Sequence record: OR352939.1
DNA: 64,000 bases
Reading direction: 5' to 3' (one strand)
From: Escherichia phage AV109
Positions 8,865 to 40,002 of the stretch are shown here, piece by piece. Each line of letters begins with the position of its first letter. Positions within the stretch are counted from its first letter, which is position 1. The notes under the pieces were generated by a model. The model saw only the letters and a list, made by a program, of their open reading frames with translations, was not told where the DNA came from and made no database searches. A program made the translations under genes and the position numbers.

Positions 8865-11078
8865 TTATTTGGCTGCTTCCACAGCCTTCATGAATTTAAC
8901 GATTTGAGCGACCTGTTCTTTTGAAAGAGTACCACGTCGTCCCATGTATTCTGACACAATATGATAATTGGTTTCGAATTCAATAACCATTTTATCATCA
9001 TTATCGTAAGCATTATCTTTAAGCTTATCGAAAATTTTAGCACACAATTCTAACTTCTTATTCAGGTCTGTATTAGTAGCACCTGCGAATCGATTCCATC
9101 CCCAACGATTATTTACTGTTGAGAGTTTTGCAAAATCTTTACTGATTTCTTTGTTTTTAGAGCTAAAATACTTACTAAGGAAGTTAAGCTCTTCATTACG
9201 AGTAATATGATTCAAATAAGGTTGAGCTCTACGACTTGGTGATACATACTCATCATAATCCGCTTTATCAATTAGCGTAATATAGTCATTAATTGATTTT
9301 TCGAACAAGCATTCTACTTCACCAAGTTTACGAACTTTCTTAGCAATCTGTGGACGAACTACAGTGAACTCTTTAATACCCGACAAATCAGCAATACGGG
9401 TCAAGAAATTGGAGTCATAGTTCAACCAACCTTTATCTGCGTCAAGACATTCAGCATTAGAACGATTACGAACTATAGCATAACCTTGGATTTCATCTGC
9501 TTCACTTGCCGGAATAAAGAGATCTTCTGATACCCAAACATCGTTTTCATTCTTAAAGAATCGATGAGCACTTGGCGATTTAGGACGAGGCTCATTAGTC
9601 CGTTTCTTGACTTCAATCCATGGCTTAACGATTTGTAAAAGCTCTGAAGTCTTGTACATGTTAATGTTGTCGCCATCAAAGATAACTTTAAGGCGTTCCA
9701 GAAGTTTCATTGCATCTTCGTCTGTAGGGTCAACGAATAGTATGCTTTTACCAAAACCGCGCGGAACTTTACCAGTTAATTTAACATCGTCTTTAGACAT
9801 TTCAATTGAATTAAGAGCTCGCATTAATGGAACGCGTCCCTTAACGTCGTCAATAACAATTTCAACATTTTTAATGTTAATGCCAATCAGACTGTTAATT
9901 GAAATAGTCGCCGATGAGCTACCACTTTCACGAATACGACGAAGACGAGGGGATTCAACTATATCGTATACTACGCCAAGATTACACCACTCAGGCCCCA
10001 TTTTAAAACGTTTGTACAACTCAGAATAAGTTAGTTGTTCTTTAGAGTATTTCAGTGATTCAATATTAGACCCGGCCTTTTCCATGTATTTACGAGCGGT
10101 ATAGCCAAGAGAATCAATTTCACGGAACACATGACGTGGGTATTTACAATCAATCCATTTCTTAGAATCTTCAGCGAACAATTTAGCATCGATTTCTGCA
10201 ACGCGTTTATGGATATTTGCTACTGTACGTTTATCAAATGACAATGCTTCACGAGACGGGGCTACATCTAGTTCACCCATAGGGAATTTAATATAAGCTG
10301 TAGTGCATCGCGTCATCATCCATGTTTGTTCTTTAATAACACTTCCGATTGGATATACAATACCACCATAAACAGCCATGATATTACCACGTTCACCCCA
10401 TGGAGCTTCCTTGGCCAAATATACATCGTCAAATTCTGGGAAGTATTTAATATCTTTAACACCACGAACTTCTGCAATATCACCTAGAGGACGCATAACA
10501 TAAGCAATTTCGGATGCGAACTTTTCAAAATCTTCTGGGTTAACAGGCACAACTACTTCAACGCCGGTCCGGTCATCAGGACCCATCTTATCTACGAAGG
10601 TTGGCTTAATCTGTGGACCCGTGTCATCTTGGTAGATTACGTAACCACGAACTTCACCGTTGTGATAAGACGTAAGGTTAAACGTATCGGTATATGCTAA
10701 TGGAGCTTTAGAGCCGAGTCCGAATCCACCAATGAAATCGTTACTCGATGTTTTAGTTGAAGCAAAATATGAGTTATAGATTCCTGGCTCTTTGTCATTA
10801 CCTCGAATGGTGAAATCACTCATACCCGGTCCAAAATCACGAACTACAAAACGTGGGTCTAAACGACCTGGAGCCTGAACAATAAACTTATCAGTGCAAC
10901 CATTAAGAATTTGCCCATCAATACAGTTTGTGATTAATTCACGTACACAAGCCAATTCTTTGTTTGTATAAAGGTCATTAGACAAAATCTTATAAACTTT
11001 GCTATTGCCTTGAATAGTAAATGCTGTGCTCTTACCGCCTGAACCAATAATCGTTTCTTTAGCCGTTTCGATAATCAT
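8865..11078 (-). CDS. rIIA: rIIA protein (GHKL-type ATPase domain at N-terminus)
   Basis: 737 aa; N-terminal ATPase-like motif (ELITNCIDGQ, DFGPGMS); adjacent to rIIB as in T4. Confidence 0.8.
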   Translation of the reverse strand: MIIETAKETIIGSGGKSTAFTIQGNSKVYKILSNDLYTNKELACVRELITNCIDGQILNGCTDKFIVQAPGRLDPRFVVRDFGPGMSDFTIRGNDKEPGIYNSYFASTKTSSNDFIGGFGLGSKAPLAYTDTFNLTSYHNGEVRGYVIYQDDTGPQIKPTFVDKMGPDDRTGVEVVVPVNPEDFEKFASEIAYVMRPLGDIAEVRGVKDIKYFPEFDDVYLAKEAPWGERGNIMAVYGGIVYPIGSVIKEQTWMMTRCTTAYIKFPMGELDVAPSREALSFDKRTVANIHKRVAEIDAKLFAEDSKKWIDCKYPRHVFREIDSLGYTARKYMEKAGSNIESLKYSKEQLTYSELYKRFKMGPEWCNLGVVYDIVESPRLRRIRESGSSSATISINSLIGINIKNVEIVIDDVKGRVPLMRALNSIEMSKDDVKLTGKVPRGFGKSILFVDPTDEDAMKLLERLKVIFDGDNINMYKTSELLQIVKPWIEVKKRTNEPRPKSPSAHRFFKNENDVWVSEDLFIPASEADEIQGYAIVRNRSNAECLDADKGWLNYDSNFLTRIADLSGIKEFTVVRPQIAKKVRKLGEVECLFEKSINDYITLIDKADYDEYVSPSRRAQPYLNHITRNEELNFLSKYFSSKNKEISKDFAKLSTVNNRWGWNRFAGATNTDLNKKLELCAKIFDKLKDNAYDNDDKMVIEFETNYHIVSEYMGRRGTLSKEQVAQIVKFMKAVEAAK

Positions 11079-11090
11079 GTTTTTCTCTCA

Positions 11091-11291
11091 TCACAAGTTA
11101 CGTTTAAAAATTTCTGCCACTTCGAGAAGTTCTTCTTTAGTAGCTGTGTCGGTTTGTATTTTATATCGAATTTCCTTAAAGCGTTCTTTAAAGGCTTCAG
11201 CTGATTCGATATCAAAAAATCTTTGGATAAGCCGGAATTCCCGGAGCACTGCTTTATCAAAAAGTTCCAAGTCCACGTTATATGTTCTCAT
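11091..11291 (-). CDS. Hypothetical protein (rIIA.1 position)
   Basis: Start placed at ATG 11291 (MRTYNV); the track start at 11321 is a GTG lying inside a 16-bp inverted repeat. Confidence 0.35.
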   Translation of the reverse strand: MRTYNVDLELFDKAVLREFRLIQRFFDIESAEAFKERFKEIRYKIQTDTATKEELLEVAEIFKRNL

Positions 11292-11311
11292 AATATTCTC
11301 TTCAGTAGATT

Positions 11312-11372
11312 CCTGAGGCACTATTACTAAAGACCATATAATCTATCATCTTATGTGTAATAGTGCCTCAGG
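11312..11372. repeat. 16-bp perfect inverted repeat (cctgaggcactattac / gtaatagtgcctcagg) with 29-nt loop
   Basis: Arms at 11312-11327 and 11357-11372 are exact reverse complements; intergenic between glycosyltransferase gene and rIIA.1. Confidence 0.7.
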
Positions 11373-11383
11373 CGATTCAGGAT

Positions 11384-12484
11384 TTACGCTGTGAAGATTT
11401 TATCCCACATCGCAACAACTGCATCTCGATTATACTTCTTCCATACTGCTTCAGCACGTTTAACTCGAGCTTCGTATGTGTCAGTGAATTCTAATACAGC
11501 TTTTGTGTAAAGCGCAACTACTTCTTTCTTAGGAGTAGAGGAATCAATTTCTACACGCACAGTATCTGGGTCGTATTCAAATGTCGCATGAGGATAATCC
11601 TTAAAAACTAACTGGATTACAGGGACACCTTTAGAGATGGCTTCAATAGAACTATTCTCTACCGTACCTGTGTCAGGACACGTATTAATAAGTGCTTTAG
11701 CTGTTTTAAGACGTTCCATGATTTCACTATGTGGAGCATCAATAATAACAGGATACTTAGCCGGTGGTGCCCATTTACTAGGACAGTATCCTGCACCATT
11801 TTCGCCTAGTGCTTTAATCGCTTCAAGAGCAACATCAGTGCGACGCATTTTAGTGTCATAACGTTGGGCACTAATAATCAAATCAGTTGCTGGGAGAACT
11901 TCTGGCTTTTCGGTCAAACAAATAACCGGGTAGTCATCATGTTCAAATAATGGATTTTCACGCCAGTAATCATAATCAATGCTATCAGTAAGAGCTGAAG
12001 TCATATGGCAATATTTACGTTCAAATTCACGGAATGCTTTAGTAGGAGCATAGCTCTTACCACCGTATTTGTGGGTAAGAATAGTTTGTTTCCAAATTTC
12101 TACAATACCGCGAGATACAGGCTCAAATGGAGTTGCCATAAAATTTCTATGAACACTGGATAAACCGGCATCTTTAATTGCGTTAACAGTTAGTTTAGTC
12201 GGTTCCATAGTAACAACAAAATCGTATTCATGGATGCCGGCTAGTTCAACAATCTTACGAGCCATAGTATAACTCATACCTAGACTGAATTTAGTCAGAT
12301 GACCAACAGGATGATGATTAACTTTCCAGTCACCAAACGTGTCATTATCAAAGCCGATATAATCAATATCAGCACCGATGGACACAAGATATTTCAACAC
12401 ATTTAAATGTACTGCTTCAAGGCCACCTTGTACACGGTCAGGATTAAATGGGACTGCACGAGATGGGATAAACATAACTTTCAT
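11384..12484 (-). CDS. GT-B fold glycosyltransferase (GT4-like); candidate DNA hydroxymethylcytosine glycosyltransferase
   Basis: 366 aa; C-terminal nucleotide-sugar binding signature resembling GT4 E-x7-E (TGTVENSSIEAISKGVPVIQ); not present at this position in T4. Confidence 0.5.
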   Translation of the reverse strand: MKVMFIPSRAVPFNPDRVQGGLEAVHLNVLKYLVSIGADIDYIGFDNDTFGDWKVNHHPVGHLTKFSLGMSYTMARKIVELAGIHEYDFVVTMEPTKLTVNAIKDAGLSSVHRNFMATPFEPVSRGIVEIWKQTILTHKYGGKSYAPTKAFREFERKYCHMTSALTDSIDYDYWRENPLFEHDDYPVICLTEKPEVLPATDLIISAQRYDTKMRRTDVALEAIKALGENGAGYCPSKWAPPAKYPVIIDAPHSEIMERLKTAKALINTCPDTGTVENSSIEAISKGVPVIQLVFKDYPHATFEYDPDTVRVEIDSSTPKKEVVALYTKAVLEFTDTYEARVKRAEAVWKKYNRDAVVAMWDKIFTA

Positions 12485-12510
12485 AATTAAGCCTTATTAA
12501 AATTAAAATG

Positions 12511-12528
12511 AAGCTCCCGAAGGAGCTT
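12511..12528 (-). other. UUCG-tetraloop hairpin (AAGCUCC-UUCG-GGAGCUU) between HNH endonuclease gene and glycosyltransferase gene
   Basis: Inverted repeat with cgaa loop on plus strand; overlaps stop codon of the HNH gene. Confidence 0.4.
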
Positions 12529-13339
12529 AGGACATCCAACACATTTTATAACCTTTGCAGGTTCTGTTAGGATTATTTAATGCTTTCAATATATTAGAAG
12601 ACCCTATATCTAAATACTCCCTTAATTCATAAAGATAGTTAAAATCAATAGTTTCACCTGTTTTTACACTTGTGATTCTTATAGGCCTTCTTTCATATTT
12701 AGATTTATACAACTCTCTAGTCTTAGCTTTAGTTTCTTCTGACCTAGGAGTGTATGGTTTAAATCCTTTTGTTTTAAATGTTTCCATTCTTGATTTAGTT
12801 ATTTTATCCTGGTGTTCTTTTGTTTTTACAGGTGCTTTTCGCCCATTCTCCCAAGATAACTTGTTGGCCTGTATTATTTTATCTATTGCTTCTTGCGTAT
12901 GAGTTTTACCATAAAATGGATTTAATTCGCCTATACGTTGTGAAGCAATATGTGACATTAATTCTCTTGTTGCTTTAGTATGTTTTTTACCTTTAAATGG
13001 ATTGCCATTTTTAGCAATCCATTCTTTCATAAATCTAGAGTGCTCTTTAGAGAATTCTTGTTTAAGCCAATCATAATCTCTAGAATTTCTAGCTCCCATG
13101 TAAAAAGCTCTAATAGCCATAAGCATAGAACGGTTCTTATGAATTTTATAAAGCAATAAATGGGCGATAAAATGCTCTCTAGGGGTCATTTTAACTAGAT
13201 TTGATTTAGCATTACTCCCACCCATAGATTTAGGCAAAATATGGTGAGTTTCAGTATAATTAGGAATAGTGCTGCGGTTTTTAGCCGCAGCGATAAGTTT
13301 ATCATAAATTTTACGATAATTCATTATCCTAGCATCCAA
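12527..13339 (-). CDS. HNH homing endonuclease with NUMOD3-like repeats (Mob-like)
   Basis: 270 aa; HHILPKSMGG...N core and repeated NPFYGK.HT / NPFKGKKHT modules; occupies the mobA slot beside gene 39. Confidence 0.65.
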   Translation of the reverse strand: MDARIMNYRKIYDKLIAAAKNRSTIPNYTETHHILPKSMGGSNAKSNLVKMTPREHFIAHLLLYKIHKNRSMLMAIRAFYMGARNSRDYDWLKQEFSKEHSRFMKEWIAKNGNPFKGKKHTKATRELMSHIASQRIGELNPFYGKTHTQEAIDKIIQANKLSWENGRKAPVKTKEHQDKITKSRMETFKTKGFKPYTPRSEETKAKTRELYKSKYERRPIRITSVKTGETIDFNYLYELREYLDIGSSNILKALNNPNRTCKGYKMCWMS

Positions 13340-15162
13340 TCTTTACGGAGTTCAGGGTCGTTACCCATGAGCATTTCAAATAGTTCTTTCCAATTTTCAG
13401 GAAGTTTAACTACGTCGTACACAGGGTTTTGAATCATTTCTTTATATTCATCCCGCTGAAGTGAGCCCAATCCCTTGATGTATCGAATACTATGCTTAGG
13501 CAGTGTATCTTTAACTTCTTCATACTCAGCTACAGTATAAAACCATTTTTGAGTTTTGCCAATTTGTGCAATAATTACAGGCGTTTTAACAAAGCGAATA
13601 CGTCCTTGTTCAAACAATTCAGGCCAATTACTAAAGAAAGCAAGCAAAGCCGGATAAATACTTCCAAGGCCGTCATGATCGGCATCGGTCATAATTGCAA
13701 TATTACGGTAGTTCGTATTCTCTGCCTTTTCACCAAGAATAAGACCCGTGATAGCACAGATATCAAAGAGCTCTTTGTTCTTCATCATATCGGCATATGA
13801 CATACCCCAGCTATTCATCACCTTACCACGTAATGGGAATCCGCCGTGTAGTTCACGGTCACGAACATCAATGAGATAACCAATTGCCGAATCACCTTCT
13901 GTTAAAAACAATGTCGTATCTGCATCTTTACCACATTGGTTAGCTTTAATATGCTTATGAACCTTAGCTTTAGTTGCCTTTTTAGCTGCTTTAGTTTCTG
14001 CAGCCTTTTCTGCTGCCAATTTACGAGCTAATGCGGCTTCAATTATAGGCATTAAAACTGCTTCAGAATTCAAAATATTTTTTGCCAATTTTTTTGTATC
14101 TAATTTAATATGCGTCCGAATTTCGCCATAAGGACTTGTTAAACGCTCTTTGGTTTGGGAATCAAAACGAAGGTTCTTCATTCCACGAACGAACATTAAG
14201 AGAGTGAGACATTCCTTGATTCGCGCTTTAGTCACGTCGATTTTATATTTGCGTTTAATAGCCGGAATTAATTCTTCGCTAATGTCGTCCATCACACATT
14301 CAATGTGATGACCACCGTTTTTGGTATGGATGTTATTCACATAAGTTAAATGACGGAAGCCATCTGGTGACCGTCCAATGGCAATAGAGCATCCGTCTTG
14401 TTCTTGAATGATGGTCTCTTCATCAAATTGTTTAGCAAACTTCTTAAAGTTACCTTGAATCTTTTTGCCATTAAATTTAAATTCAATACCAGGATAAACG
14501 ACCGCCAATGTTTGGAGCCGGTCTATAGTAATATCTTGGTATATTTTTTCAAATTGATTCATTTCAAAATGTGAGAAATCAGGAATAAACTCGACCTTAG
14601 TACCGTTGTTTTTAGACGGCTTAGATTTCCAAGAAATATTATCAGCGTTATTAGAACAATTAACGGTCAATTCATTTTTACCATCTGAAGTAGTGCCAAC
14701 AAAAGAGACAGAAAAAATATTTGTTAATGAAGAACCGACACCGTTTTGTCCACCCGTAACACGTTCTTTGTCGTCACCAAAGTTGCCACCGGCTTTTGTA
14801 CGTGTCCACGCCGCAACTGGTCCTGGAATTTCTTCTCCTTCAGGAGTAATAACTGTTTCTTGAGGAATACCTCGACCATTATCTTCAACAGTCACTTTAT
14901 TAGAATTTAAATCAATACTAACGGAAATTTTATTAGCATATTTGAAATTGGTTCGAATAGCTTCGTCTACTGAGTTGTCAATAATTTCATCAATTAATTT
15001 GAGAACACCTGCAACATATTTAACCTTTTTAAATTCACCGAATAGGAAACGTTCTTGTTCTTCATTGGCAACACTTCCAATATACATGCCAGGACGCTTC
15101 AAACAATGCTCTTTATCAGATAGCATTTCAATTTTATTATCAATCATTAGATTTTCTCTCAA
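13324..15162 (-). CDS. 39: DNA topoisomerase II large subunit gp39 (GyrB-like), unsplit 39+60
   Basis: 612 aa continuous ORF with GyrB-type ATPase N-terminus (HCLKRPGMYIGS, DNGRGIP) and TOPRIM region; no separate gene 60 or bypass gap. Confidence 0.9.
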   Translation of the reverse strand: MRENLMIDNKIEMLSDKEHCLKRPGMYIGSVANEEQERFLFGEFKKVKYVAGVLKLIDEIIDNSVDEAIRTNFKYANKISVSIDLNSNKVTVEDNGRGIPQETVITPEGEEIPGPVAAWTRTKAGGNFGDDKERVTGGQNGVGSSLTNIFSVSFVGTTSDGKNELTVNCSNNADNISWKSKPSKNNGTKVEFIPDFSHFEMNQFEKIYQDITIDRLQTLAVVYPGIEFKFNGKKIQGNFKKFAKQFDEETIIQEQDGCSIAIGRSPDGFRHLTYVNNIHTKNGGHHIECVMDDISEELIPAIKRKYKIDVTKARIKECLTLLMFVRGMKNLRFDSQTKERLTSPYGEIRTHIKLDTKKLAKNILNSEAVLMPIIEAALARKLAAEKAAETKAAKKATKAKVHKHIKANQCGKDADTTLFLTEGDSAIGYLIDVRDRELHGGFPLRGKVMNSWGMSYADMMKNKELFDICAITGLILGEKAENTNYRNIAIMTDADHDGLGSIYPALLAFFSNWPELFEQGRIRFVKTPVIIAQIGKTQKWFYTVAEYEEVKDTLPKHSIRYIKGLGSLQRDEYKEMIQNPVYDVVKLPENWKELFEMLMGNDPELRKDWMLG

Positions 15163-15823
15163 ATTGCATGACTATATTTTTGTATGAACCTTCCGGAAAT
15201 CCACGTTTAATGCTTTCTTTAGCAAATTTCCCAACCTTTGGTTTATCCAATTCTAACCATAATTTATATAAAGCAGATTCATATTCCCATACAGGACTTT
15301 TACGATTTTTAAGCCCACACTTTATAAGCGCTTCCTTTGTATGTTTCTTATTATAAAATGGATTGTTTTTGCCACTCATTGCTTTAGAATGTTCCGGGCG
15401 CTTAATTCCATACATCGGATTAAGATCGCCTTTCTTGATAACGGATTGTAGTTCAATAGTTTCTTCAGAGTGATTGTGTCCATAAAATGGATTTAACTCT
15501 TTTGAAACATCCATACCAAAGCACCCATCGACTGTGGCATAAGACATGTTGAAAAATTTTTCAGATTTAACCACATTATGCAATTTCTGGTAATACAACT
15601 CACAAAACGTCGCTTCTTCCCGTGTATCAAATTCGCCAATAATACATGAATCAAATAAATGAGGATTATCTTTTATCTCTTTATCATAAATTTGTTTATA
15701 TTTTTTCGACTTTACCGTACCATGATAGTGATTGTTTGTATGTTTATCAAGATAAGTAGACCCTATATAAAACGGTGGCAACTTATCGCCTGTGTATATT
15801 GTTAAGTATGTTATGTATTTCAT
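15140..15823 (-). CDS. GIY-YIG homing endonuclease (Seg-like) with NUMOD3 repeats
   Basis: 227 aa; N-terminal YITYLTIYTGDKLPPFYIGST (GIY-YIG variant); NPFYG..HSEET and NPFYNKKHT repeats; paralogue of 50245..51048. Confidence 0.65.
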   Translation of the reverse strand: MKYITYLTIYTGDKLPPFYIGSTYLDKHTNNHYHGTVKSKKYKQIYDKEIKDNPHLFDSCIIGEFDTREEATFCELYYQKLHNVVKSEKFFNMSYATVDGCFGMDVSKELNPFYGHNHSEETIELQSVIKKGDLNPMYGIKRPEHSKAMSGKNNPFYNKKHTKEALIKCGLKNRKSPVWEYESALYKLWLELDKPKVGKFAKESIKRGFPEGSYKNIVMQFERKSND

Positions 15824-33453: not shown

Positions 33454-34002
33454 TTAACGAGCCCATTTGATAATTTCTGTAATCAAATAATTACGTTCGC
33501 TTGCATTAAATCCTATAACTTTGTTAGCACCATCATGATTAAGTAATTGATACGTTTGGATTTTGTTATGAATTGCAAACTCTTCAAAATGTGAAATGAC
33601 TGTATTAAAACCGAATGAAGACAAAGTAATAAGGTCGTCTTCAAAACTTTCAGTCATTTCGTTACGTGTTAAAATAATTGTGAACACATCATGGTTTTGG
33701 CAAAGACGAACATAATCCTGTTCATAAACGTCAAGAACCGAGTCCGCATCTTGTCGAATACGTCCATAAACCCAGTTACTAATATATCCACGGTCTAACA
33801 GATAAATCTTAGTAGGGTCTAAATAATTCAACATCGTTTCGAAACAGCCAACTTCATTTCGAGACTTAACATCGAAACGTCCATCAACTGTTCGTTTAGG
33901 GAAATCAATTTTTACATATCTTTCACTAATTTCCATTATGTCATTAATGAAAGTTGTTTTACCAGCATTATCCGGTCCATCTACTAAAATAATTTTAGCC
34001 AT
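33454..34002 (-). CDS. P-loop kinase, thymidylate/dNMP-kinase-like
   Basis: 182 aa; Walker A GPDNAGKTT and DRG motif (LLDRGYISNWVYG) as in TMPK-family kinases; sits where T4 has segA/bgt. Confidence 0.5.
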   Translation of the reverse strand: MAKIILVDGPDNAGKTTFINDIMEISERYVKIDFPKRTVDGRFDVKSRNEVGCFETMLNYLDPTKIYLLDRGYISNWVYGRIRQDADSVLDVYEQDYVRLCQNHDVFTIILTRNEMTESFEDDLITLSSFGFNTVISHFEEFAIHNKIQTYQLLNHDGANKVIGFNASERNYLITEIIKWAR

Positions 34003-34003
34003 T

Positions 34004-34903
34004 TTATTCCTCGATTACGACATCTTCATATTTAGGTATATTATATGGTGAAGAAATTAAAGCATTAAAGTAGATGAACTCACCAAGACCTGGATGAAAT
34101 ACTTCTTCAGGATTTTCGAAATATTGAATCTTCGGACGTCCTTTAAGAATTTGATAGTACTCAGTTTTAGTTGGTTTAAAAATTCGAATCAACGCTTCTT
34201 CAGGATACTTATTTCTGTCAAAGCTATTATTTGGATCGGTTATATAAAGCGGTTGACCTAATTGAATTGCGCATTCAACAACTTGTTCAAAACGATAGCA
34301 TGGGTCACTAATTCGAAATGGATGAAAAATACCATCTAGATGAATAGGAGCCAAATCACCTACAAGACGCTGCATGATGGAAGGACGTATAACTTTCTGC
34401 GTTACGATAATCTTATTACCATCTGCACCTGCGTTAACCAGCACTTCTTTTTGACGTTCATTCAACACAGTTGTTTGGATTGAACGATTAACCGACAATA
34501 TGTCGGTTTTTAAGAATTCGTCAATATAAAAACGTGGTTTATTAGGGTCTGCGGTGATATTGAAATTGAATTCTACATCAAAAGCGCCGTCATATCCAGT
34601 GATATCTGTGATTAGAAAATCACAATCATAATAAGCAATTAATGAATCAACCACAAATTCATTTTCAGACCAGAAATATTTACGAGTGTTATACGCGTTA
34701 TCTTTATACCATAATGGAACAAACTTAAATTCTGGAAAAAGACGTTCGCATTCTTTAATATCAGATGCATTACGTGGATATGTAATCACATCACCCGGAT
34801 TAGCACGGTGCAAATGAAGTTGGAAGTTGCCATCCTTAAGGATAGCATACTGTCCAGTTTCATAAGACCGCATACTCAAGATAGGTACGCGGAAAATAGC
34901 CAT
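34004..34903 (-). CDS. Hypothetical protein in the bgt slot (candidate transferase)
   Basis: 299-aa ORF tightly packed between the P-loop kinase and the gene 42 homologue; no motif recognised. Confidence 0.45.
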   Translation of the reverse strand: MAIFRVPILSMRSYETGQYAILKDGNFQLHLHRANPGDVITYPRNASDIKECERLFPEFKFVPLWYKDNAYNTRKYFWSENEFVVDSLIAYYDCDFLITDITGYDGAFDVEFNFNITADPNKPRFYIDEFLKTDILSVNRSIQTTVLNERQKEVLVNAGADGNKIIVTQKVIRPSIMQRLVGDLAPIHLDGIFHPFRISDPCYRFEQVVECAIQLGQPLYITDPNNSFDRNKYPEEALIRIFKPTKTEYYQILKGRPKIQYFENPEEVFHPGLGEFIYFNALISSPYNIPKYEDVVIEE

Positions 34904-35619
34904 TAGTCAAGGAATCCTTTAACATAATCAAAATCACGTTCAAACACATGGGCACTTACCATGGTATGAGTATAATCACCAACTTCTACACCACATTCGT
35001 TAGCGATATAATGAAGTAATTTTCCTTGGAGATAAAAATCCAACTGCATAACAACAGCACAGTTCTGGGAACGCATATGACAGTGGGTATAAAGCTTACC
35101 GTCACGAATATAATAGGTCACTGAGTCAGTACATGGATATTCAAGCGTTTCGTCTGAATCAAGCAAAGCCTGATCAGAACTTTCTAGAATTTGGAACACA
35201 ACTCTTCGGGAGTTAGGCTTCTCTTTAAGTTCTTTTAGAAGAGCTGGTAATTGAGCCGCAATGCGAGGACCATAGAAAGTGTTGAAGTTCGCCGGCAAAA
35301 CATCTGATTTTGGTTTAGAAATAAATTTAGCGACATTAGGATATGCCTTAAACGCTTCTTCTGCGTTGGTACCACCAGAAATCATAAACTTCCAGAAGTC
35401 TTCGGCATATTCATAAGAGATGCGGTTAATACGTGGGTCGGTCATTTTGAATGATGATGGAGTGTCAACAACTACTGTCATAGACCCAATTTCATTACAA
35501 CGTCCAATACGAGAATCAGTTACGAATTCCGGGTTTTCTAAAATTTCACGATTGACTGCTTTAAATGCGGCTTGAAAATCTGCGGCTTTGATATATTTCA
35601 TTGTGTTATGTTTTCCCAT
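34903..35619 (-). CDS. 42: dCMP hydroxymethylase-like (thymidylate synthase family)
   Basis: 238 aa; TS-family active-site region (YPCTDSVTYYIRDGKLY, HMRSQN); position before gene 43 as T4 gene 42. Confidence 0.65.
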   Translation of the reverse strand: MGKHNTMKYIKAADFQAAFKAVNREILENPEFVTDSRIGRCNEIGSMTVVVDTPSSFKMTDPRINRISYEYAEDFWKFMISGGTNAEEAFKAYPNVAKFISKPKSDVLPANFNTFYGPRIAAQLPALLKELKEKPNSRRVVFQILESSDQALLDSDETLEYPCTDSVTYYIRDGKLYTHCHMRSQNCAVVMQLDFYLQGKLLHYIANECGVEVGDYTHTMVSAHVFERDFDYVKGFLD

Positions 35620-35661
35620 GTTTACCTCAATACAATTTATTATATACTCAATTTGTAAAGC

Positions 35662-35901
35662 TTATTTGAATTTCTTGGCAATGTTGATATAACGTAAAGC
35701 TTCAGTATCAATACTTCCAAGAACACTATGAAGAAATGCATCAGCGTAGTATTCCAATTGAACAGGTTCTTTAATCACTTTAGCCGCTTTGGTTTCAAAC
35801 AGGCCCATCAGGGCCTTTTTAAGAATTTGTTCGTTAGTGTTCAGTTTAATAGTCAAAATCTCTTCGTTAAGTTTATAATTAAAAGTTTTTCTAGAAATCA
35901 T
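35662..35901 (-). CDS. Hypothetical protein
   Basis: 79-aa ORF. Confidence 0.4.
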   Translation of the reverse strand: MISRKTFNYKLNEEILTIKLNTNEQILKKALMGLFETKAAKVIKEPVQLEYYADAFLHSVLGSIDTEALRYINIAKKFK

Positions 35902-37067
35902 TCCGGGTACCTCAAAGCGTCATCAGAGTTAGTTATATCAATAATAGATATAGAGTTTTCTGCTAACCCGTTTTTAGATAATTGACGTTTATAATATCTT
36001 TCACAATATGTACACGTCGTCCCGCAGATTTCATTAGCACAATCGAAATCTGGATGTCTGAACCACCTTTTTTCTAAAAAGCCATCTAACAAAGAGGTTT
36101 CAATATTTACTGTATGTGAAAACTCAGTTTCGTTTTCAAGAGTGAAAATGGTCTCTAAAGGCTTCCACAGTTCTAACAAATTACCTTCAAACTTTTCAGA
36201 AGCGTATGCTTCAAGAACTTTCAAAATGTAGTCTGTGCTACCTGTACGTCCTGAAACTTTGAATTGAGTGATACCAATATCATTATAAAGTTTCAAATCT
36301 TGAGGACGAACAAAACGAGTTCTCAACCAGTTAAATGGGTCTGTATCACGAGCTTTAATACAGTGCTGCATAGGATATCCGTTTAAGGATTTAGCATCAT
36401 CAGCTGTAACATCAGTACTATGGAAAATATAGCAAGAGTCACGATAGCTACAATGTGTTGTATACCCTTTACCAGCATTAGAACAGAACTCATTTACAAG
36501 AACTTCAAATATTATATTGTTCTTATTGCAAAACTCTGCTGCACGCTTCAGGAAAGAAACTGAACGGTTCTTATGAATTCCGCAGCAGACCTTTTTGATA
36601 TTATACTGGTCATGCAAGTATTTGATTTGAGTTACAGCATCGACATGTAGAATTGTTGAAACTTCAATCTCAATGTCTTTATTGACTTCACGAACAATTT
36701 CCATAACAACAGGGTTAGCGATAGTAATACGCCATACGCCTATTGACCAAAGATACTGAACATAATCCTGAATAGCTTTCTTCTTCCACTCAACTAGTTC
36801 TCTTTTTGAACCAGGATTTATCGTGTTGAGTGTATAGTTAAAGCAAATACCTAATTCGTTACAACGTTTAACGTAGTCTTCTAACATCTTTTTGTCAACG
36901 TCAGGAAGCCTAAAATCAGGTCTGGCTGCTACAAAAGCCATTTCTCTTGTAGAGCCATATACTTCGTTTATCAAGCTATTAGGATAGGTTTTATTGAGCT
37001 CTACGATTTTATCAAGAAGAGCTAAATCAAAATTCGTTCCGATTTTAAAAGTATTCATTTTTTGCAT
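35898..37067 (-). CDS. U32-peptidase-family-like protein with Cys clusters (putative Fe-S enzyme)
   Basis: 389 aa; blocks resembling the U32 family (ICFNYTLNTINP, EVLVNEFCSNAGKGYTTHCSY, FKVSGRTGS) plus C-terminal CANEICGTTCTYC; assignment from motif recall only. Confidence 0.35.
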   Translation of the reverse strand: MQKMNTFKIGTNFDLALLDKIVELNKTYPNSLINEVYGSTREMAFVAARPDFRLPDVDKKMLEDYVKRCNELGICFNYTLNTINPGSKRELVEWKKKAIQDYVQYLWSIGVWRITIANPVVMEIVREVNKDIEIEVSTILHVDAVTQIKYLHDQYNIKKVCCGIHKNRSVSFLKRAAEFCNKNNIIFEVLVNEFCSNAGKGYTTHCSYRDSCYIFHSTDVTADDAKSLNGYPMQHCIKARDTDPFNWLRTRFVRPQDLKLYNDIGITQFKVSGRTGSTDYILKVLEAYASEKFEGNLLELWKPLETIFTLENETEFSHTVNIETSLLDGFLEKRWFRHPDFDCANEICGTTCTYCERYYKRQLSKNGLAENSISIIDITNSDDALRYPE

Positions 37068-37113
37068 CTCGCGTTAATTGATGCGATGGTTTTTGCAGGT
37101 CTTACTTAAATTA

Positions 37114-37515
37114 TTATAGATTCGGTTTATACGATTTAAATGTTTCGAATTCGCCTTTATTCATAAGAGCTTTGAATTCGTCAGGACGCATAGCTTTGTC
37201 GTCGATAATCCAATCATATACTGGTTTATGTGTTAGCAAATTATGGTACTTCAAGCCAATGTTTGCCAAGTTCTGAATCAGACTTGGGAGAATGTCAATT
37301 GCTATACGACCAGGACCTACTGACTTCATACCGCGAGCAGTGTAAAGCGTTATGGTATGCCCTGCATCATACAGGGCATTAATGGCAGACACCATTTCGA
37401 CGTCTGGTTTGAAGTTCACGTAATCACGATTGTTATTCCACTCTGTTATACAATCATCGACATCAAAACAAAGATTAAGCATGTTTTCTACACGGTGCAT
37501 TAGATTCGTTCCCAT
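37114..37515 (-). CDS. HAD-superfamily phosphatase (KdsC-like small sugar-phosphate phosphatase)
   Basis: 133 aa; DxD motif I (CFDVDDCIT) near N-terminus. Confidence 0.5.
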   Translation of the reverse strand: MGTNLMHRVENMLNLCFDVDDCITEWNNNRDYVNFKPDVEMVSAINALYDAGHTITLYTARGMKSVGPGRIAIDILPSLIQNLANIGLKYHNLLTHKPVYDWIIDDKAMRPDEFKALMNKGEFETFKSYKPNL

Positions 37516-39185
37516 TGATGAGTGATATCGCCACCGATTGGACGATAGGAAACACCAGTTTCTTTATCAGTTAGTACCCATTTACCAGGATTTTTTGTAA
37601 TCAGAGTAGCCGTTACAGGTTCTGCTACGTCATAACTAATAGAGCCGTCCTGAAGTACACGGCCCATGTTACGTAATTGCTTAGTCAGAAGTTCCATACC
37701 TTTATAATATGCGGCTACCGCTTTAAGTGGATTATTCTTGAAATAACCACCTAATGCAATCCAGATAATTGCCACAGCCAAATGATGATATTCATTAAAC
37801 GAACTCAGCTTTCCATATTTGTAAACTAATGGATTGATGTTAATAGTCACATTACAAGTTGTTTCATCAATAGTAAACTGTCCCCAGGTCGGATTAGCAT
37901 TGAATTCATCATAACCTGAAACAGCATAAAGCACTTTAGCTTCATCATACAATTTTGGCCCGTAAATCTTGGTTTCACCAAAATATCCACGAGGGTCGAT
38001 AAATTTGACTTCGCCGTTATCAGTAATCATAGTATTACTGAAGTTCGGGTCACCATGAATAACAGAGTACTGTCCCTGAGAACGGTTATGATAACGAATA
38101 AGGTGTTCTAAAGCTTGTTTCAGCATTGGCTTCAGACGTCCAATCTTAGTGTAGTTCACATGTGTGATTTTACCAAATGAATCAATCAACGGTTGAATGC
38201 TTTCACAACGATCAATAACTTTCGTATAGAATTCTTTAGTGAAATCACGACGAACAGTTTCAGGACTTACAAAATAAGTGTCTGTGCTGAATTTCAGTGC
38301 ATCTAAAATTGCATCAACAATTTGTGGACGAGCAAGACTTGATTTGGATTTAATATATTCAAATGCCGGCTTACCTTTAATGCGTTCCATTTCAAAGTTA
38401 TTTTCATTAACAGAAACTAACTGAGGAACTGAATCTGATTTCACTTTAAGATACCATGAAATCTCATCTTTCTGAAGAGCTCGACCTTGTTCAGTTAATG
38501 CGAATTTAGTTACAGTTTCTTCACCAATTTCAACTGCATTAAAACTACGATTAAGTTCACGAACTTCATGAGCCTTTTCAAGTTTAGGCATATCACCAAG
38601 GTCGATGATATTCATAAGCTCTGATTTATTGAATGCGCCGCTGTAAAGGAATTCTACGAAATCACGTCCTTTGCAGTATTCATGAATTTCCTCATCGGTA
38701 GAACCCATGTAGAATTCCCAGTCTTTGAACTGGTAAATTCCCACAACATTACCACCTGTTGAACCTACGTTAGTGATATTTTCACCATCGAAATTATATC
38801 GACATTCGTCACCCTTAACATAGATTGCGTTAACATTCCAAGACCATGAACCAAAATCAGGAATAATATCACACCAGTTAACAATTACGTTATGGCCGTC
38901 TAAATCTTTGTGTAATTTAGCAAGAGCATAAGCAGAACCATACGCTTCATCGACTGTACGAATAGTCACATTGAACCCTTCTTGCTCACAATAAGCTCGA
39001 ACAGTTTCAGCAAATTTTGAATGAACTACTACAATAATTTCATCTGCGCCAAGGTCAGAATAAATTGTATACAAATTGCTCAGAATAGTGTCTTGTTTAT
39101 AGTTAACAAGCACCTTAGGAATATGGTGAGTAATTGGATATAAACGAGTTGCCAATCCAGCACCAAGAATAACAGCTTTTTTCAT
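37500..39185 (-). CDS. Bifunctional sugar-1-phosphate nucleotidyltransferase / sugar kinase (APH/choline-kinase-like C-terminal domain)
   Basis: 561 aa; N-terminal NTP-transferase signature (KAVILGAGLATRLYPITHHIPKVLV); C-terminal phosphotransferase motifs (HGDPNFSNTMI, KFIDPRGYFG). Confidence 0.6.
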   Translation of the reverse strand: MKKAVILGAGLATRLYPITHHIPKVLVNYKQDTILSNLYTIYSDLGADEIIVVVHSKFAETVRAYCEQEGFNVTIRTVDEAYGSAYALAKLHKDLDGHNVIVNWCDIIPDFGSWSWNVNAIYVKGDECRYNFDGENITNVGSTGGNVVGIYQFKDWEFYMGSTDEEIHEYCKGRDFVEFLYSGAFNKSELMNIIDLGDMPKLEKAHEVRELNRSFNAVEIGEETVTKFALTEQGRALQKDEISWYLKVKSDSVPQLVSVNENNFEMERIKGKPAFEYIKSKSSLARPQIVDAILDALKFSTDTYFVSPETVRRDFTKEFYTKVIDRCESIQPLIDSFGKITHVNYTKIGRLKPMLKQALEHLIRYHNRSQGQYSVIHGDPNFSNTMITDNGEVKFIDPRGYFGETKIYGPKLYDEAKVLYAVSGYDEFNANPTWGQFTIDETTCNVTININPLVYKYGKLSSFNEYHHLAVAIIWIALGGYFKNNPLKAVAAYYKGMELLTKQLRNMGRVLQDGSISYDVAEPVTATLITKNPGKWVLTDKETGVSYRPIGGDITHQWERI

Positions 39186-39212
39186 GTTGTGGTCCTCATT
39201 GGTAAGTAGGAG

Positions 39213-39240
39213 TATTGTACACTATTCTAGTTAAAGCATT
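39213..39240 (-). promoter_or_regulatory. Candidate MotA-dependent middle promoter (MotA box AATGCTTTA + TACAAT -10) upstream of the nucleotidyltransferase-kinase gene
   Basis: Minus strand reads AATGCTTTAA-N12/13-TACAAT, then GAGG RBS and ATG at 39185. Confidence 0.4.
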
Positions 39241-39370
39241 CATACTTTGCTTGTAGTCCAATCATAATCCATCCAATTACAAGTGTTGGAATCATTACCG
39301 GAGCCGTTAAGCTCCAGTAGATAGTCATGACAAGCATCAATAGTAAAAGTCCTATTGTTATTGCTTTCAT
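39227..39370 (-). CDS. Small membrane protein (about 47 aa)
   Basis: ATG 39370 overlapping stop of SIS gene (ATGA), GAGG RBS; translation MKAITIGLLLLMLVMTIYWSLTAPVMIPTLVIGWIMIGLQAKYECFN; T4 has membrane protein Imm in this interval. Confidence 0.3.
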   Translation of the reverse strand: MKAITIGLLLLMLVMTIYWSLTAPVMIPTLVIGWIMIGLQAKYECFN

Positions 39371-40002
39371 TGTTCGCCTCGTAACATGGCACCTAGTGCA
39401 CCGCCTGGATGGAACTTAAGGAAATCATTAGAGGTAAATCCACGTTCAGACGAAAGGTTGATAGCAAACGTATCGATAAGCGCTAACAACAATGTAGTGG
39501 ACATTGTCGGAGCTAAAGAGTTCTCGTCAACTTCTACCGCGATACCAGTACAGAACGTATAATCAAAAAGAGCTTCGTATTCTTGTGGAATGTCAGGGTT
39601 ACAATGTAACAGAATCTGTTTAACCTGAGGACGAATCATACGAAGATGTTTAGCAACACCTATCATTTCTTCAGTCTTACCAGAACGACTAATATGAATC
39701 AACACGTCATTAGGTGCAATAAATCCTGCGTCACCATGAGAATAATGCCCAGTGTTCAAATACATGCTAGGAATACCTAGTGAAGCAAATGTCTCGGAAG
39801 CTTTAGTTGCGATATTAGCATTCTTACCAACACCTGTAATAATTACCCGGCTTTCATAATTACTAAGTCCAGGGCGTCGAAGAGTTTCTAGAATAGCATT
39901 ATAACGAGCAGGGTTTTGACTAATTACTTTGGCCATAGCGGCCAAAGAAGAAGCTTGTTTTATGATTGCGTCAATAGCGATAGTAATAGGAGTAGTTTTC
40001 AT
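39367..40002 (-). CDS. SIS-domain sugar-phosphate isomerase, KpsF/GutQ-type (arabinose-5-phosphate isomerase-like), no CBS domains
   Basis: 211 aa; ITGVGKNANIATKASETFASLGIPSMYL, HGDAGFIAPNDVLIHISRSGKTEEM, LAPTMSTTLLLALID, FHPGGALG match the KpsF/GutQ SIS-domain pattern. Confidence 0.6.
   Translation of the reverse strand: MKTTPITIAIDAIIKQASSLAAMAKVISQNPARYNAILETLRRPGLSNYESRVIITGVGKNANIATKASETFASLGIPSMYLNTGHYSHGDAGFIAPNDVLIHISRSGKTEEMIGVAKHLRMIRPQVKQILLHCNPDIPQEYEALFDYTFCTGIAVEVDENSLAPTMSTTLLLALIDTFAINLSSERGFTSNDFLKFHPGGALGAMLRGEQ

Follow-up and report, generated by a model that had tools for sequence, protein, structure and literature searches.

A phage GT-B glycosyltransferase beside rIIA.1 in a Mosigvirus genome is probably the transferase for the second arabinose on 5-hydroxycytosine in DNA

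The window analysed here, a 64,000-nucleotide stretch of Escherichia phage AV109 (OR352939.1), is of Mosigvirus origin and is identical to phage AV115 across positions 11000-13400. On its minus strand (the strand of every feature described below) lies an ATG-initiated ORF of 366 aa at 11384..12484, which putatively encodes a UDP-Araf:DNA beta-arabinofuranosyltransferase 2 (hereafter the GT). Downstream of it is rIIA.1 (11091..11291, 66 aa, ATG at 11291; Pfam T4_RIIA1, E 6e-30), and the intergenic stretch from the GT stop to the rIIA.1 start contains a 16-bp perfect inverted repeat (11312..11372; arms 11312-11327 and 11357-11372, 29-nt loop). A mechanically called GTG start for rIIA.1 (11321) falls inside a repeat arm; the T4_RIIA1 match begins at residue 11 of that longer ORF, and the gene is annotated with 201 nt in Bas47 and RB69. 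Upstream of the GT are a UUCG-tetraloop hairpin followed by a T-run (AAGCUCC-UUCG-GGAGCUU, 12511..12528), a Mob-type HNH/NUMOD3 homing endonuclease gene (12527..13324, 265 aa from its ATG; Pfam NUMOD3/HNH; PHROG 655, E 3e-56), and the gene for a 612-aa DNA topoisomerase II large subunit (13324..15162). A previous sequence-only reading of this DNA had reported the ORF between rIIA.1 and the HNH gene, the hairpin, the repeat and a sugar pathway 22 kb away, all of which are in the sequence. Its remark that the ORF lies where T4 has gene 60 applies to position only, as the gene-60 equivalent is fused to gene 39 within the topoisomerase ORF.

Full-length homologs of the GT in 211 phage records far exceed what a chance ORF would give. 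Purifying selection acts on the gene (dN/dS 0.10 versus RB69 and 0.11 versus Bas47), and dS is 0.2-0.27 in these comparisons, indicating that it has long been resident by vertical descent. A scan for sigma-70 promoters around the gene found 8, compared with 9.3 expected from shuffles, and thus no enrichment. The GT4-type signature noted earlier in the ORF, E-x4-E-A-x3-G-x-P-V-I, occurs at residues 276-290 as ENSSIEAISKGVPVI, and E276, E281, G286, P288 and V289 are invariant in the family alignment. Compared with the canonical EX7E motif, E281 (followed by A-x3-G-x-P-V) is invariant, while position -8 is occupied by G273 and an invariant E276 is found at -5 instead. PHROG 8302 matches the protein over its full length. 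The profile search for Glycos_transf_1/GT4 that had been suggested as a check gave nothing: no Pfam family matched at E ≤ 1, including Glycos_transf_1 (PF00534) and Glyco_trans_4, and an NCBIfam scan likewise returned 0 families, so the fold had to come from structure.

Structural evidence was available from an ortholog. The GT is 96% identical over its full length to the glycosyltransferase of HY126, another Mosigvirus-type phage, which is its best match by both sequence and fold (hmmsearch of PDB sequences, E 9e-196 to 9iqz) and for which crystal structures were released on 2025-07-16 (PDB 9iqz, apo; 9ir0, with UDP). These structures reportedly belong with a 2026 paper by He and colleagues in Nat Chem Biol. 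Homologs are otherwise few, with 5 clusters in a word-indexed search and 11 representatives among 1.8 billion proteins in an exhaustive profile search, making this a tiny, essentially phage-only family; no deep alignment could therefore be built, and the AF2 model of the GT, based on a 6-sequence alignment, was moderate (pLDDT only 60; TM 0.62-0.66 to the solved ortholog). The model served Foldseek only, and the solved ortholog makes it redundant. Its best Foldseek matches were 9ir0/9iqz, then PimA, BshA, WaaG and BGluT (E about 1e-9, probability 1.00); there were 206 PDB matches at E ≤ 1e-3, and the best 50 of these 206 were GT-B glycosyltransferases or GT-B-like UDP-GlcNAc 2-epimerases. These data support identification of the 366-aa protein as a GT-B nucleotide-sugar transferase, its orthologs and homologs place it in a phage DNA sugar-modification system, and the glycosyltransferase assignment of the sequence-only reading holds.

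The GT is the Mosigvirus ortholog of RB69 gp3 (ORF003c, NP_861693.1), to which it is 96% identical over 366 aa (16 amino-acid substitutions) and with which it shares length, slot and a companion arabinose/5hodC cluster; the role, fold and crystal structure of this protein have all been reported before. In 2018, Thomas et al. (PMC6024577) proposed RB69 ORF003c as a DNA arabinosyltransferase, with an HHpred link to 1XV5 (E 1.9e-24), and RB69 gp3 is listed elsewhere as "beta-arabinosyltransferase 2" (PMC13326640). The order rIIA.1, GT, gene 39 is common to RB69, Bas47 and NRG-P0074, whereas in the window an HNH gene, absent from RB69, separates the GT from gene 39. Two tandem paralogs of Acinetobacter phage DLP3, gp77 and gp76 (42% and 41% identity in full-length alignments), belong to the same family and conserve the GG loop, R208 and the E276/E281 motif. 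They lie inside the DLP3 cluster, adjoining kinase, GT1, ThyA, phosphatase, pyrophosphorylase and isomerase genes, while the window has one copy 22 kb off. Across the 211 records, the family is confined to Mosigvirus (one copy, fixed in the genus) and Acinetobacter phages (two copies).

The NDP-sugar pathway cluster of the window spans 33454..40002, about 22 kb from the GT gene. It comprises a nucleotide kinase-like protein in the position of RB69 gp45 (33454..34002; syntenic with RB69p045, "thymidylate kinase"), a second GT-B protein of 299 aa corresponding to RB69 gp46:47 (34004..34903; the candidate first, base-proximal, alpha arabinosyltransferase), a thymidylate-synthase homolog corresponding to RB69 gp48 (34903..35619; Pfam Thymidylat_synt), a Peptidase_U32-like protein in the RB69 gp50 position (35898..37067), a small protein placed by synteny at RB69 gp51 (37114..37515; a proposed HAD-type Araf-1,5-bisphosphate phosphatase, analogous to AfhF), a bifunctional NTP-transferase/kinase matching RB69 gp52:53 (37500..39185; Pfam NTP_transferase and kinase-like matches; AfhE analog), and a SIS-domain arabinose-5-phosphate isomerase (39367..40002; Pfam SIS; RB69 gp55 annotation). 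For RB69 gp51 a phosphatase function (as for AfhF) has been proposed, and for gp52:53 UDP-arabinofuranose synthesis (as for AfhE) has been described (PMC13326640).

The cluster GT belongs to the RB69 gp46:47/DLP3 gp79 family, which is also GT-B and serves the same pathway as the 366-aa GT, though it is shorter and has a wider phyletic range. Its AF2 model (pLDDT 93.9) has an MshA-like fold, with Foldseek matches to MshA (3c4q), BGluT and HepE. At 99% nucleotide identity, it is one indel apart from RB69 p046+p047, and it is 46% identical to DLP3 gp79. The family is represented in 348 phage records (Escherichia, Klebsiella, Serratia, Yersinia, Proteus, Edwardsiella, Acinetobacter and other hosts); every genus with an arabinose cluster of the window's type has the cluster GT, as do all genera with the 366-aa family. 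Neither profile-profile comparison nor BLASTP detected a relationship between the 366-aa GT and the cluster GT, and by these measures the two families show no trace of paralogy. When the 64 kb were searched locally by tblastn with both window GTs and DLP3 gp76/77/79 as queries, no further GT copy came up beyond these two.

The base to be glycosylated is indicated by the ThyA homolog in the cluster (the gp42-position enzyme), which is 99% identical to RB69 gp48. RB69 gp48 was identified experimentally as a 5-hydroxy-dCMP synthase and yields 5hodC in vivo (PMC13326640). Because of this near-identity, the acceptor base in the window's phage is predicted to be 5-hydroxycytosine, not hmC.

Our analysis established the orthology, fold and synteny of the GT, the presence of two distinct GT-B genes, their phyletic distribution and the identity of the base-synthesis enzyme; the copy-number pattern and published DLP3 biochemistry most likely place the GT at step two rather than step one. 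One arabinose has been reported for Thanatos (which has a single GT), two for RB69, NP and Bas46/47 (as di-arabinosyl-5-hydroxy-dC in their DNA) and three for DLP3. The copy number of the 366-aa family (0, 1, 2) parallels this sugar number (1, 2, 3), which favours a second-step role. DLP3 gp76 and gp77 (beta-arabinosyltransferases 2/3), both of which were needed, extended RB69 DNA to tri-arabinose in vitro when supplied with UDP-Araf, and the published candidates are the cluster GT for the first transfer and RB69 gp3 for the second, beta-linked arabinose (PMC13326640).

We suggest a pathway in which the ThyA-like 5hodCMP synthase would lead to replacement of dC by 5-hydroxy-dC, the cluster at 33.5-40 kb would supply UDP-arabinofuranose, and the cluster GT (34004..34903) would attach a first, alpha-linked arabinofuranose to the 5-hydroxyl. 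The GT beside rIIA.1 would then use UDP-Araf to place a second, beta-(1->3)-linked arabinofuranose on the first sugar, in DNA, giving the di-arabinosylated cytosine typical of Mosigvirus. On balance, our data make it probable that the GT beside rIIA.1 extends the first arabinose on 5-hydroxy-C in DNA by a second.

The opposite order, in which the GT would transfer arabinose directly onto 5-hydroxy-C in DNA and the cluster GT would extend it, is unlikely, if well short of negligible. It accords with the naming of ORF003c as "the" arabinosyltransferase by Thomas et al. 2018 (PMC6024577), with the BASEL annotation of the gene ("putative hmC-arabinosyltransferase"), and with the fact that the HY126 ortholog was the glycosyltransferase picked for crystallography. 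Purified DLP3 gp79, the cluster GT of that phage, was also inactive on 5hoC DNA; in the same study bare 5hoC DNA was not acted on by any single GT, and addition of the first sugar on the nucleotide could not be distinguished from addition on DNA (PMC13326640). A first-step role is nonetheless difficult to reconcile with phyletic distribution, as most genera with the 5hodCMP synthase/arabinose cluster are without the 366-aa family, whereas none of these genera lacks the cluster GT. In Thanatos, which is mono-arabinosylated, the only ara-GT is syntenic with gp46:47 (NAR 2026 paper), the DLP3 homologs of the GT work on DNA that is already arabinosylated, and the tracking of sugar number by family copy number also speaks against it. 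The sequence-only reading had taken the GT as the most likely transferase for the base-linked sugar; that role better fits the cluster GT, which is wider in range and has been proposed in the literature for the first transfer.

GT4-like enzymes are normally retaining. The closest folds to the GT are of this kind, whereas the product proposed for it is beta-linked, and this counts against a second-step role. It may be that one of the two GT-B proteins with "retaining-type" neighbours inverts (alpha versus beta linkage from the same UDP-Araf donor), or that the published step order or linkage is wrong for Mosigvirus, with gp3 acting first or depending on a partner like DLP3 gp76/gp77; we give these possibilities together only a slight chance.

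Structural similarity alone might also point away from DNA, to a host envelope lipid, LPS or a virion protein as the acceptor, since the closest folds are of GT4 enzymes for lipids and small molecules (PimA, WaaG, BshA). The best non-phage neighbours (PimA 2gej/4nc9, BshA 3mbo, WaaG 2iv7 and MshA, all bacterial GT4) share with the GT a two-Rossmann GT-B architecture, an N-terminal Gly-Gly loop and a C-terminal Glu-Ala...Gly-x-Pro-Val, but identity is 11-15%, the first Glu of EX7E is out of register, and the acceptor of the GT would be DNA-linked. A function apart from DNA modification is very improbable given that the family is found strictly together with the 5hodC/arabinose cluster (lying inside it in Acinetobacter phages), that DLP3 homologs modified DNA in vitro, and that its few representatives are essentially confined to phages.

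Activity as a T4-type hmC-DNA glycosyltransferase, transferring sugar onto 5-hydroxymethylcytosine as the sequence-only reading had it, has almost nothing left to recommend it: the genome context is T4-like, the GT-B fold is shared with T4 a-gt and b-gt, and ara-hmC was the original chemical assignment (Thomas et al. 2018, PMC6024577), but the window's ThyA-like enzyme points to 5-hydroxy-dC rather than hmdC, NMR of RB69 DNA puts the sugar directly on C5-O (PMC13326640), and a later paper regards "ara-hmC" as a misassignment (PMC13390438). Moreover, a PDB-wide sequence profile search with the GT (E ≤ 10, 1XV5 included) returned 9iqz/9ir0 only and no other solved glycosyltransferase. The T4 alpha-glucosyltransferase (GT72, 1XV5) and beta-glucosyltransferase (GT63) are likewise phage GT-B enzymes that transfer a UDP-sugar onto modified cytosine in duplex DNA, but they are about 10% identical to the GT and use glucose and hmC rather than arabinofuranose and 5-hydroxy-C. 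Their acceptor is the base substituent, whereas that of the GT is probably a sugar hydroxyl. In function the GT is presumably nearer to the second-step beta-1,6-glucosyl-alpha-glucose transferase of T2/T6 than to T4 a-gt or b-gt.

A further proposal, that the GT is cargo of a recent mobile cassette bounded by the HNH gene, the UUCG hairpin and the 16-bp repeat, is exceedingly improbable: an HNH gene is adjacent and structured elements lie on either side of the ORF, yet the GT is fixed in Mosigvirus and is found without the HNH gene in about 147/166 matching records, the HNH insertion leaves out both hairpin and GT, the repeat is one-sided, and the GT gene has a normal composition and a long vertical residence. 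The HNH gene itself is a separate, sporadic insertion, present in about 19/166 matching Mosigvirus records and, at ≥95% identity, in 27 phage records only. It has a GC content of 0.30-0.33 with strong AT skew, compared with 0.38-0.41 in the GT gene, the same as core neighbours. Its start overlaps the gene 39 stop (TAATG), and comparison with Bas47 places the presence/absence junction precisely at the end of gene 39, with hairpin and GT untouched. The hairpin, described earlier as bracketing the GT, is gene 39's own 3' terminator-like site; it is the same in Bas47, which has no HNH gene, and in the window it is positioned after the inserted HNH gene. Both arms of the inverted repeat are 3' of the GT, which is thus not flanked by them. 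Recent acquisition of the GT as a cassette is contradicted by these observations (HNH presence/absence, junction, one-sided repeat and normal composition). T4 has no counterpart of the GT, and in Acinetobacter phages the homologs lie at a different location, inside the cluster; a past relocation of the gene is therefore plausible.

Multi-arabinosylated 5-hydroxycytosine protects Mosigvirus DNA from restriction enzymes and DNA-targeting CRISPR systems, and exposes it to type IV systems such as BrxU. Since arabinosylation shields from some defences and exposes to others, how many sugars are attached could determine the set of defences that a therapeutic phage evades, and the GT gene is the probable determinant of the second sugar. 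With its role, fold and crystal structure in the literature, the identification brings nothing new biologically; in practice it is useful for correcting the annotation of Mosigvirus genomes, most listed deposited examples of which label the gene "hypothetical protein", "DNA alpha-glucosyltransferase" or "hmC-arabinosyltransferase".

As RNA, the inverted repeat between the GT and rIIA.1 is predicted to form a very stable hairpin (dG -35.3 kcal/mol, z -7.5), and 14/16 of its pairs are kept in Bas47 and NRG-P0074. As a lesser possibility, this conserved hairpin may regulate expression of the accessory sugar step.

The glycosyltransferase finding is real and the gene already known: the 366-aa ORF at 11384..12484 (minus strand, ATG start) has been described before, several papers discuss it, and the structure of an ortholog has been solved. 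It shares 96% protein identity with RB69 ORF003c/gp3, which likewise lies between rIIA.1 and gene 39. ORF003c was assigned as the likely GT-B arabinosyltransferase by HMM/HHpred and Phyre2, with homologs recorded in JS09, Shf125875 and the Acinetobacter phages Acj61 and Acj9 (Thomas et al. 2018, PMC6024577). Across 11000-13400, Escherichia phages AV115, AV114 and AV116 match the window at 100% identity, and many further Mosigvirus (RB69-like) phages do so at 93-97%. The ortholog is labeled 'putative hmC-arabinosyltransferase' in Bas47 (AlbertHofmann), 'glycosyltransferase' in NRG-P0074 and 'hypothetical protein' in most records among those listed. Comparisons with RB69 and Bas47 (dN/dS 0.10 and 0.11, dS 0.21-0.27) point clearly to purifying selection. 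On the coding-strand downstream side, rIIA.1 (Pfam T4_RIIA1, E 6e-30) comes first and rIIA after it; the upstream neighbor is a homing endonuclease gene of HNH/NUMOD3 type encoding 265 aa (PHROG 655, E 3e-56), with the gene for the 612-aa topoisomerase II large subunit (gene 39) beyond it. This ORF, its neighbors, a UUCG hairpin, a 16-bp repeat and a distant sugar pathway are all in the sequence as the sequence-only reading described them.

That reading took the protein for GT4-like, with Glycos_transf_1 as the profile to look for; no Pfam family matched at E<=1, nor did any NCBIfam family, and the sole PHROG match, over the full length, was PHROG 8302 ('unknown function'). A word-indexed search of 5.8 billion proteins returned 5 clusters; an exhaustive profile search of 1.8 billion returned 11 representatives at 50% clustering. 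Every relative aligning over its full length at >=41% identity came from a T4-like phage of Escherichia/Shigella or Acinetobacter, and sequence searching detected no cellular homolog. Judged by these searches, the family is exceptionally narrow. The claimed nucleotide-sugar signature is present at residues 276-290 as ENSSIEAISKGVPVI, and reads as a variant of the EX7E motif with the upstream Glu at -5, not -8; residues invariant across the family alignment include G20-G21, R208, E276, E281, G286, P288 and V289.

A profile search of PDB sequences found a single entry, 9iqz/9ir0 (E 9e-196), which Foldseek also recovered with the AF2 model as 'phage HY126 glycosyltransferase', apo and 'with UDP'. 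These structures, released 2025-07-16, are of a protein 96% identical to ours. The next matches among those listed were mostly GT-B enzymes of GT4 type (E about 1e-9), including PimA, BshA, WaaG, tetrahydrobiopterin glucosyltransferase and LmbT. Our own model is mediocre (pLDDT 60, from an alignment of six sequences), and it is because the ortholog structure has been solved that the GT-B fold and UDP binding are secure. The broad guess, a sugar transferase of GT-B type serving to modify phage DNA, is right.

The acceptor proposed earlier, hmC, is not supported. RB69 cytosine has been revised to beta-D-Araf-(1->3)-alpha-D-Araf-5-hydroxy-2'-deoxycytidine, the 5-hydroxy-dC being produced by gp48, a ThyA homolog, with its dNMP kinase (NAR 2026, PMC13326640), and the Durham collection paper declares the hmC assignment erroneous (PMC13390438). 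The ThyA-like ORF at 34903..35619 is 99% identical to gp48, so the AV109 base, judged from this likeness, should be 5-hydroxy-dC rather than hmC. It belongs to the nucleotide-sugar pathway at 33.5-40.0 kb, along with a SIS isomerase, a bifunctional NTP-transferase/kinase, a U32-like protein and neighbors. Between the ThyA-like and U32-like genes of this arabinose cluster, 35620-35897 is the position of RB69p049, a 79-aa hypothetical protein.

The cluster also contains a second GT-B protein, a 299-aa ORF at 34004..34903 (minus strand), which had no Pfam match but was modeled by AF2 as GT-B with pLDDT 93.9; its nearest folds are MshA, tetrahydrobiopterin glucosyltransferase, HepE and UDP-GlcNAc 2-epimerases. 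It is 46% identical to DLP3 gp79 and equals RB69 p046+p047 but for a single-base indel: one extra T in the RB69 record (2098-2998 of the segment compared) splits the gene. The split has been called a sequencing error, and the intact frame in the window supports that account.

Which transferase acts first is suggested by their distributions. The cluster transferase occurs in 348 phage records, from hosts spanning Escherichia, Shigella, Klebsiella, Enterobacter, Serratia, Yersinia, Proteus, Edwardsiella, Pectobacterium, Erwinia and Acinetobacter, whereas the 366-aa family is found in only 211, from Mosigvirus (one copy each) and Acinetobacter T4-like phages (two in tandem, inside the arabinose cluster). 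Copy numbers of 0, 1 and 2 agree with reported mono-, di- and tri-arabinosylation; the literature reports double arabinosylation for Bas46 and Bas47, and sensitization of Bas46 to a defense system when its arabinosyltransferase (Aat) is deleted. Since copy number tracks sugar number, the 366-aa enzyme is probably an accessory chain extender rather than the first to touch the base. The NAR paper's proposal makes RB69 gp46:47 arabinosyltransferase 1 and gp3 'beta-arabinosyltransferase 2'; in vitro, DLP3 gp76 and gp77 jointly put a third arabinose on RB69 DNA from UDP-Araf, and no single transferase in that work acted on bare 5hoC (5-hydroxycytosine) DNA (PMC13326640). That the 366-aa protein instead performs the first transfer, as its earlier casting as the primary transferase implied, is unlikely given the wider range of the cluster enzyme and the copy-number pattern.

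The first three steps of the scheme we propose for a chain-extending role have the support of published chemistry and of the gene content. The gp48 homolog would turn dCMP into 5hodCMP, which would enter DNA via phage nucleotide kinases and polymerase; cluster enzymes would convert ribulose-5-P through Araf-5-P, Araf-1,5-P2 and Araf-1-P to UDP-Araf; and the cluster GT-B would add the first, alpha-linked arabinose. The 366-aa protein would then hold UDP-Araf in its C-terminal Rossmann domain, with E281 at the ribose and both R208 and the GG loop at the phosphates (an analogy with GT-B enzymes; Thomas 2018), and attach a second Araf at O3 of the first, the acceptor being DNA that already carries that sugar. 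This placement at the second transfer is likely, judging from the phyletic pattern, the biochemistry of homologs and the proposal in the literature.

The suggestion that the gene arrived as a cassette is not supported. The HNH gene occurs in only about 19 of 166 records matching the region, with copies at >=95% identity in only 27 phage records. Alignment with Bas47 reveals that this Mob-type gene is a clean, separate insertion placed exactly at the gene 39 3' end (left junction in the last codons of gene 39), which leaves the glycosyltransferase, its start region and the hairpin with its T-run intact. The HNH ATG and the new gene 39 stop overlap (TAATG), and the former gene 39 end corresponds to the last HNH codons (W-M-S-stop) and the UUCG hairpin after them. 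A short TGGATG stretch lies at both insertion junctions (window 12527-13345). The HNH gene has GC 0.30-0.33 and strong AT skew; the glycosyltransferase gene, at 0.38-0.41, resembles its core neighbors. Nor is the gene a bracketed unit: the UUCG hairpin (12511-12528, before its start) also occurs in phages lacking the HNH gene, and the 16-bp perfect inverted repeat has its two arms (11312-11327 and 11357-11372) on one side of the glycosyltransferase gene, between its stop and the rIIA.1 start.

The RNA hairpin formed by this repeat is unusually stable (dG -35.3 kcal/mol, z -7.5). It sits in the 92 nt that separate the glycosyltransferase stop from the rIIA.1 ATG, has no T-run after it and keeps 14 of 16 pairs (two mismatches) in Bas47 and NRG-P0074; candidate roles are RNA stability, a barrier to processing or control of rIIA.1 translation. 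The true rIIA.1 start is the ATG at 11291 rather than the mechanically called GTG at 11321 within a repeat arm, since the Pfam domain begins at residue 11 and other records give 201 nt. A second homing-endonuclease-like gene (15140-15823, minus strand; NUMOD3 E 9e-12, a weak GIY-YIG match, PHROG 10820/314 'homing endonuclease'), at a position where Bas47 and RB69 have none of this kind, lies directly upstream of gene 39; together with the HNH gene, it puts an endonuclease gene on either side of the topoisomerase gene.
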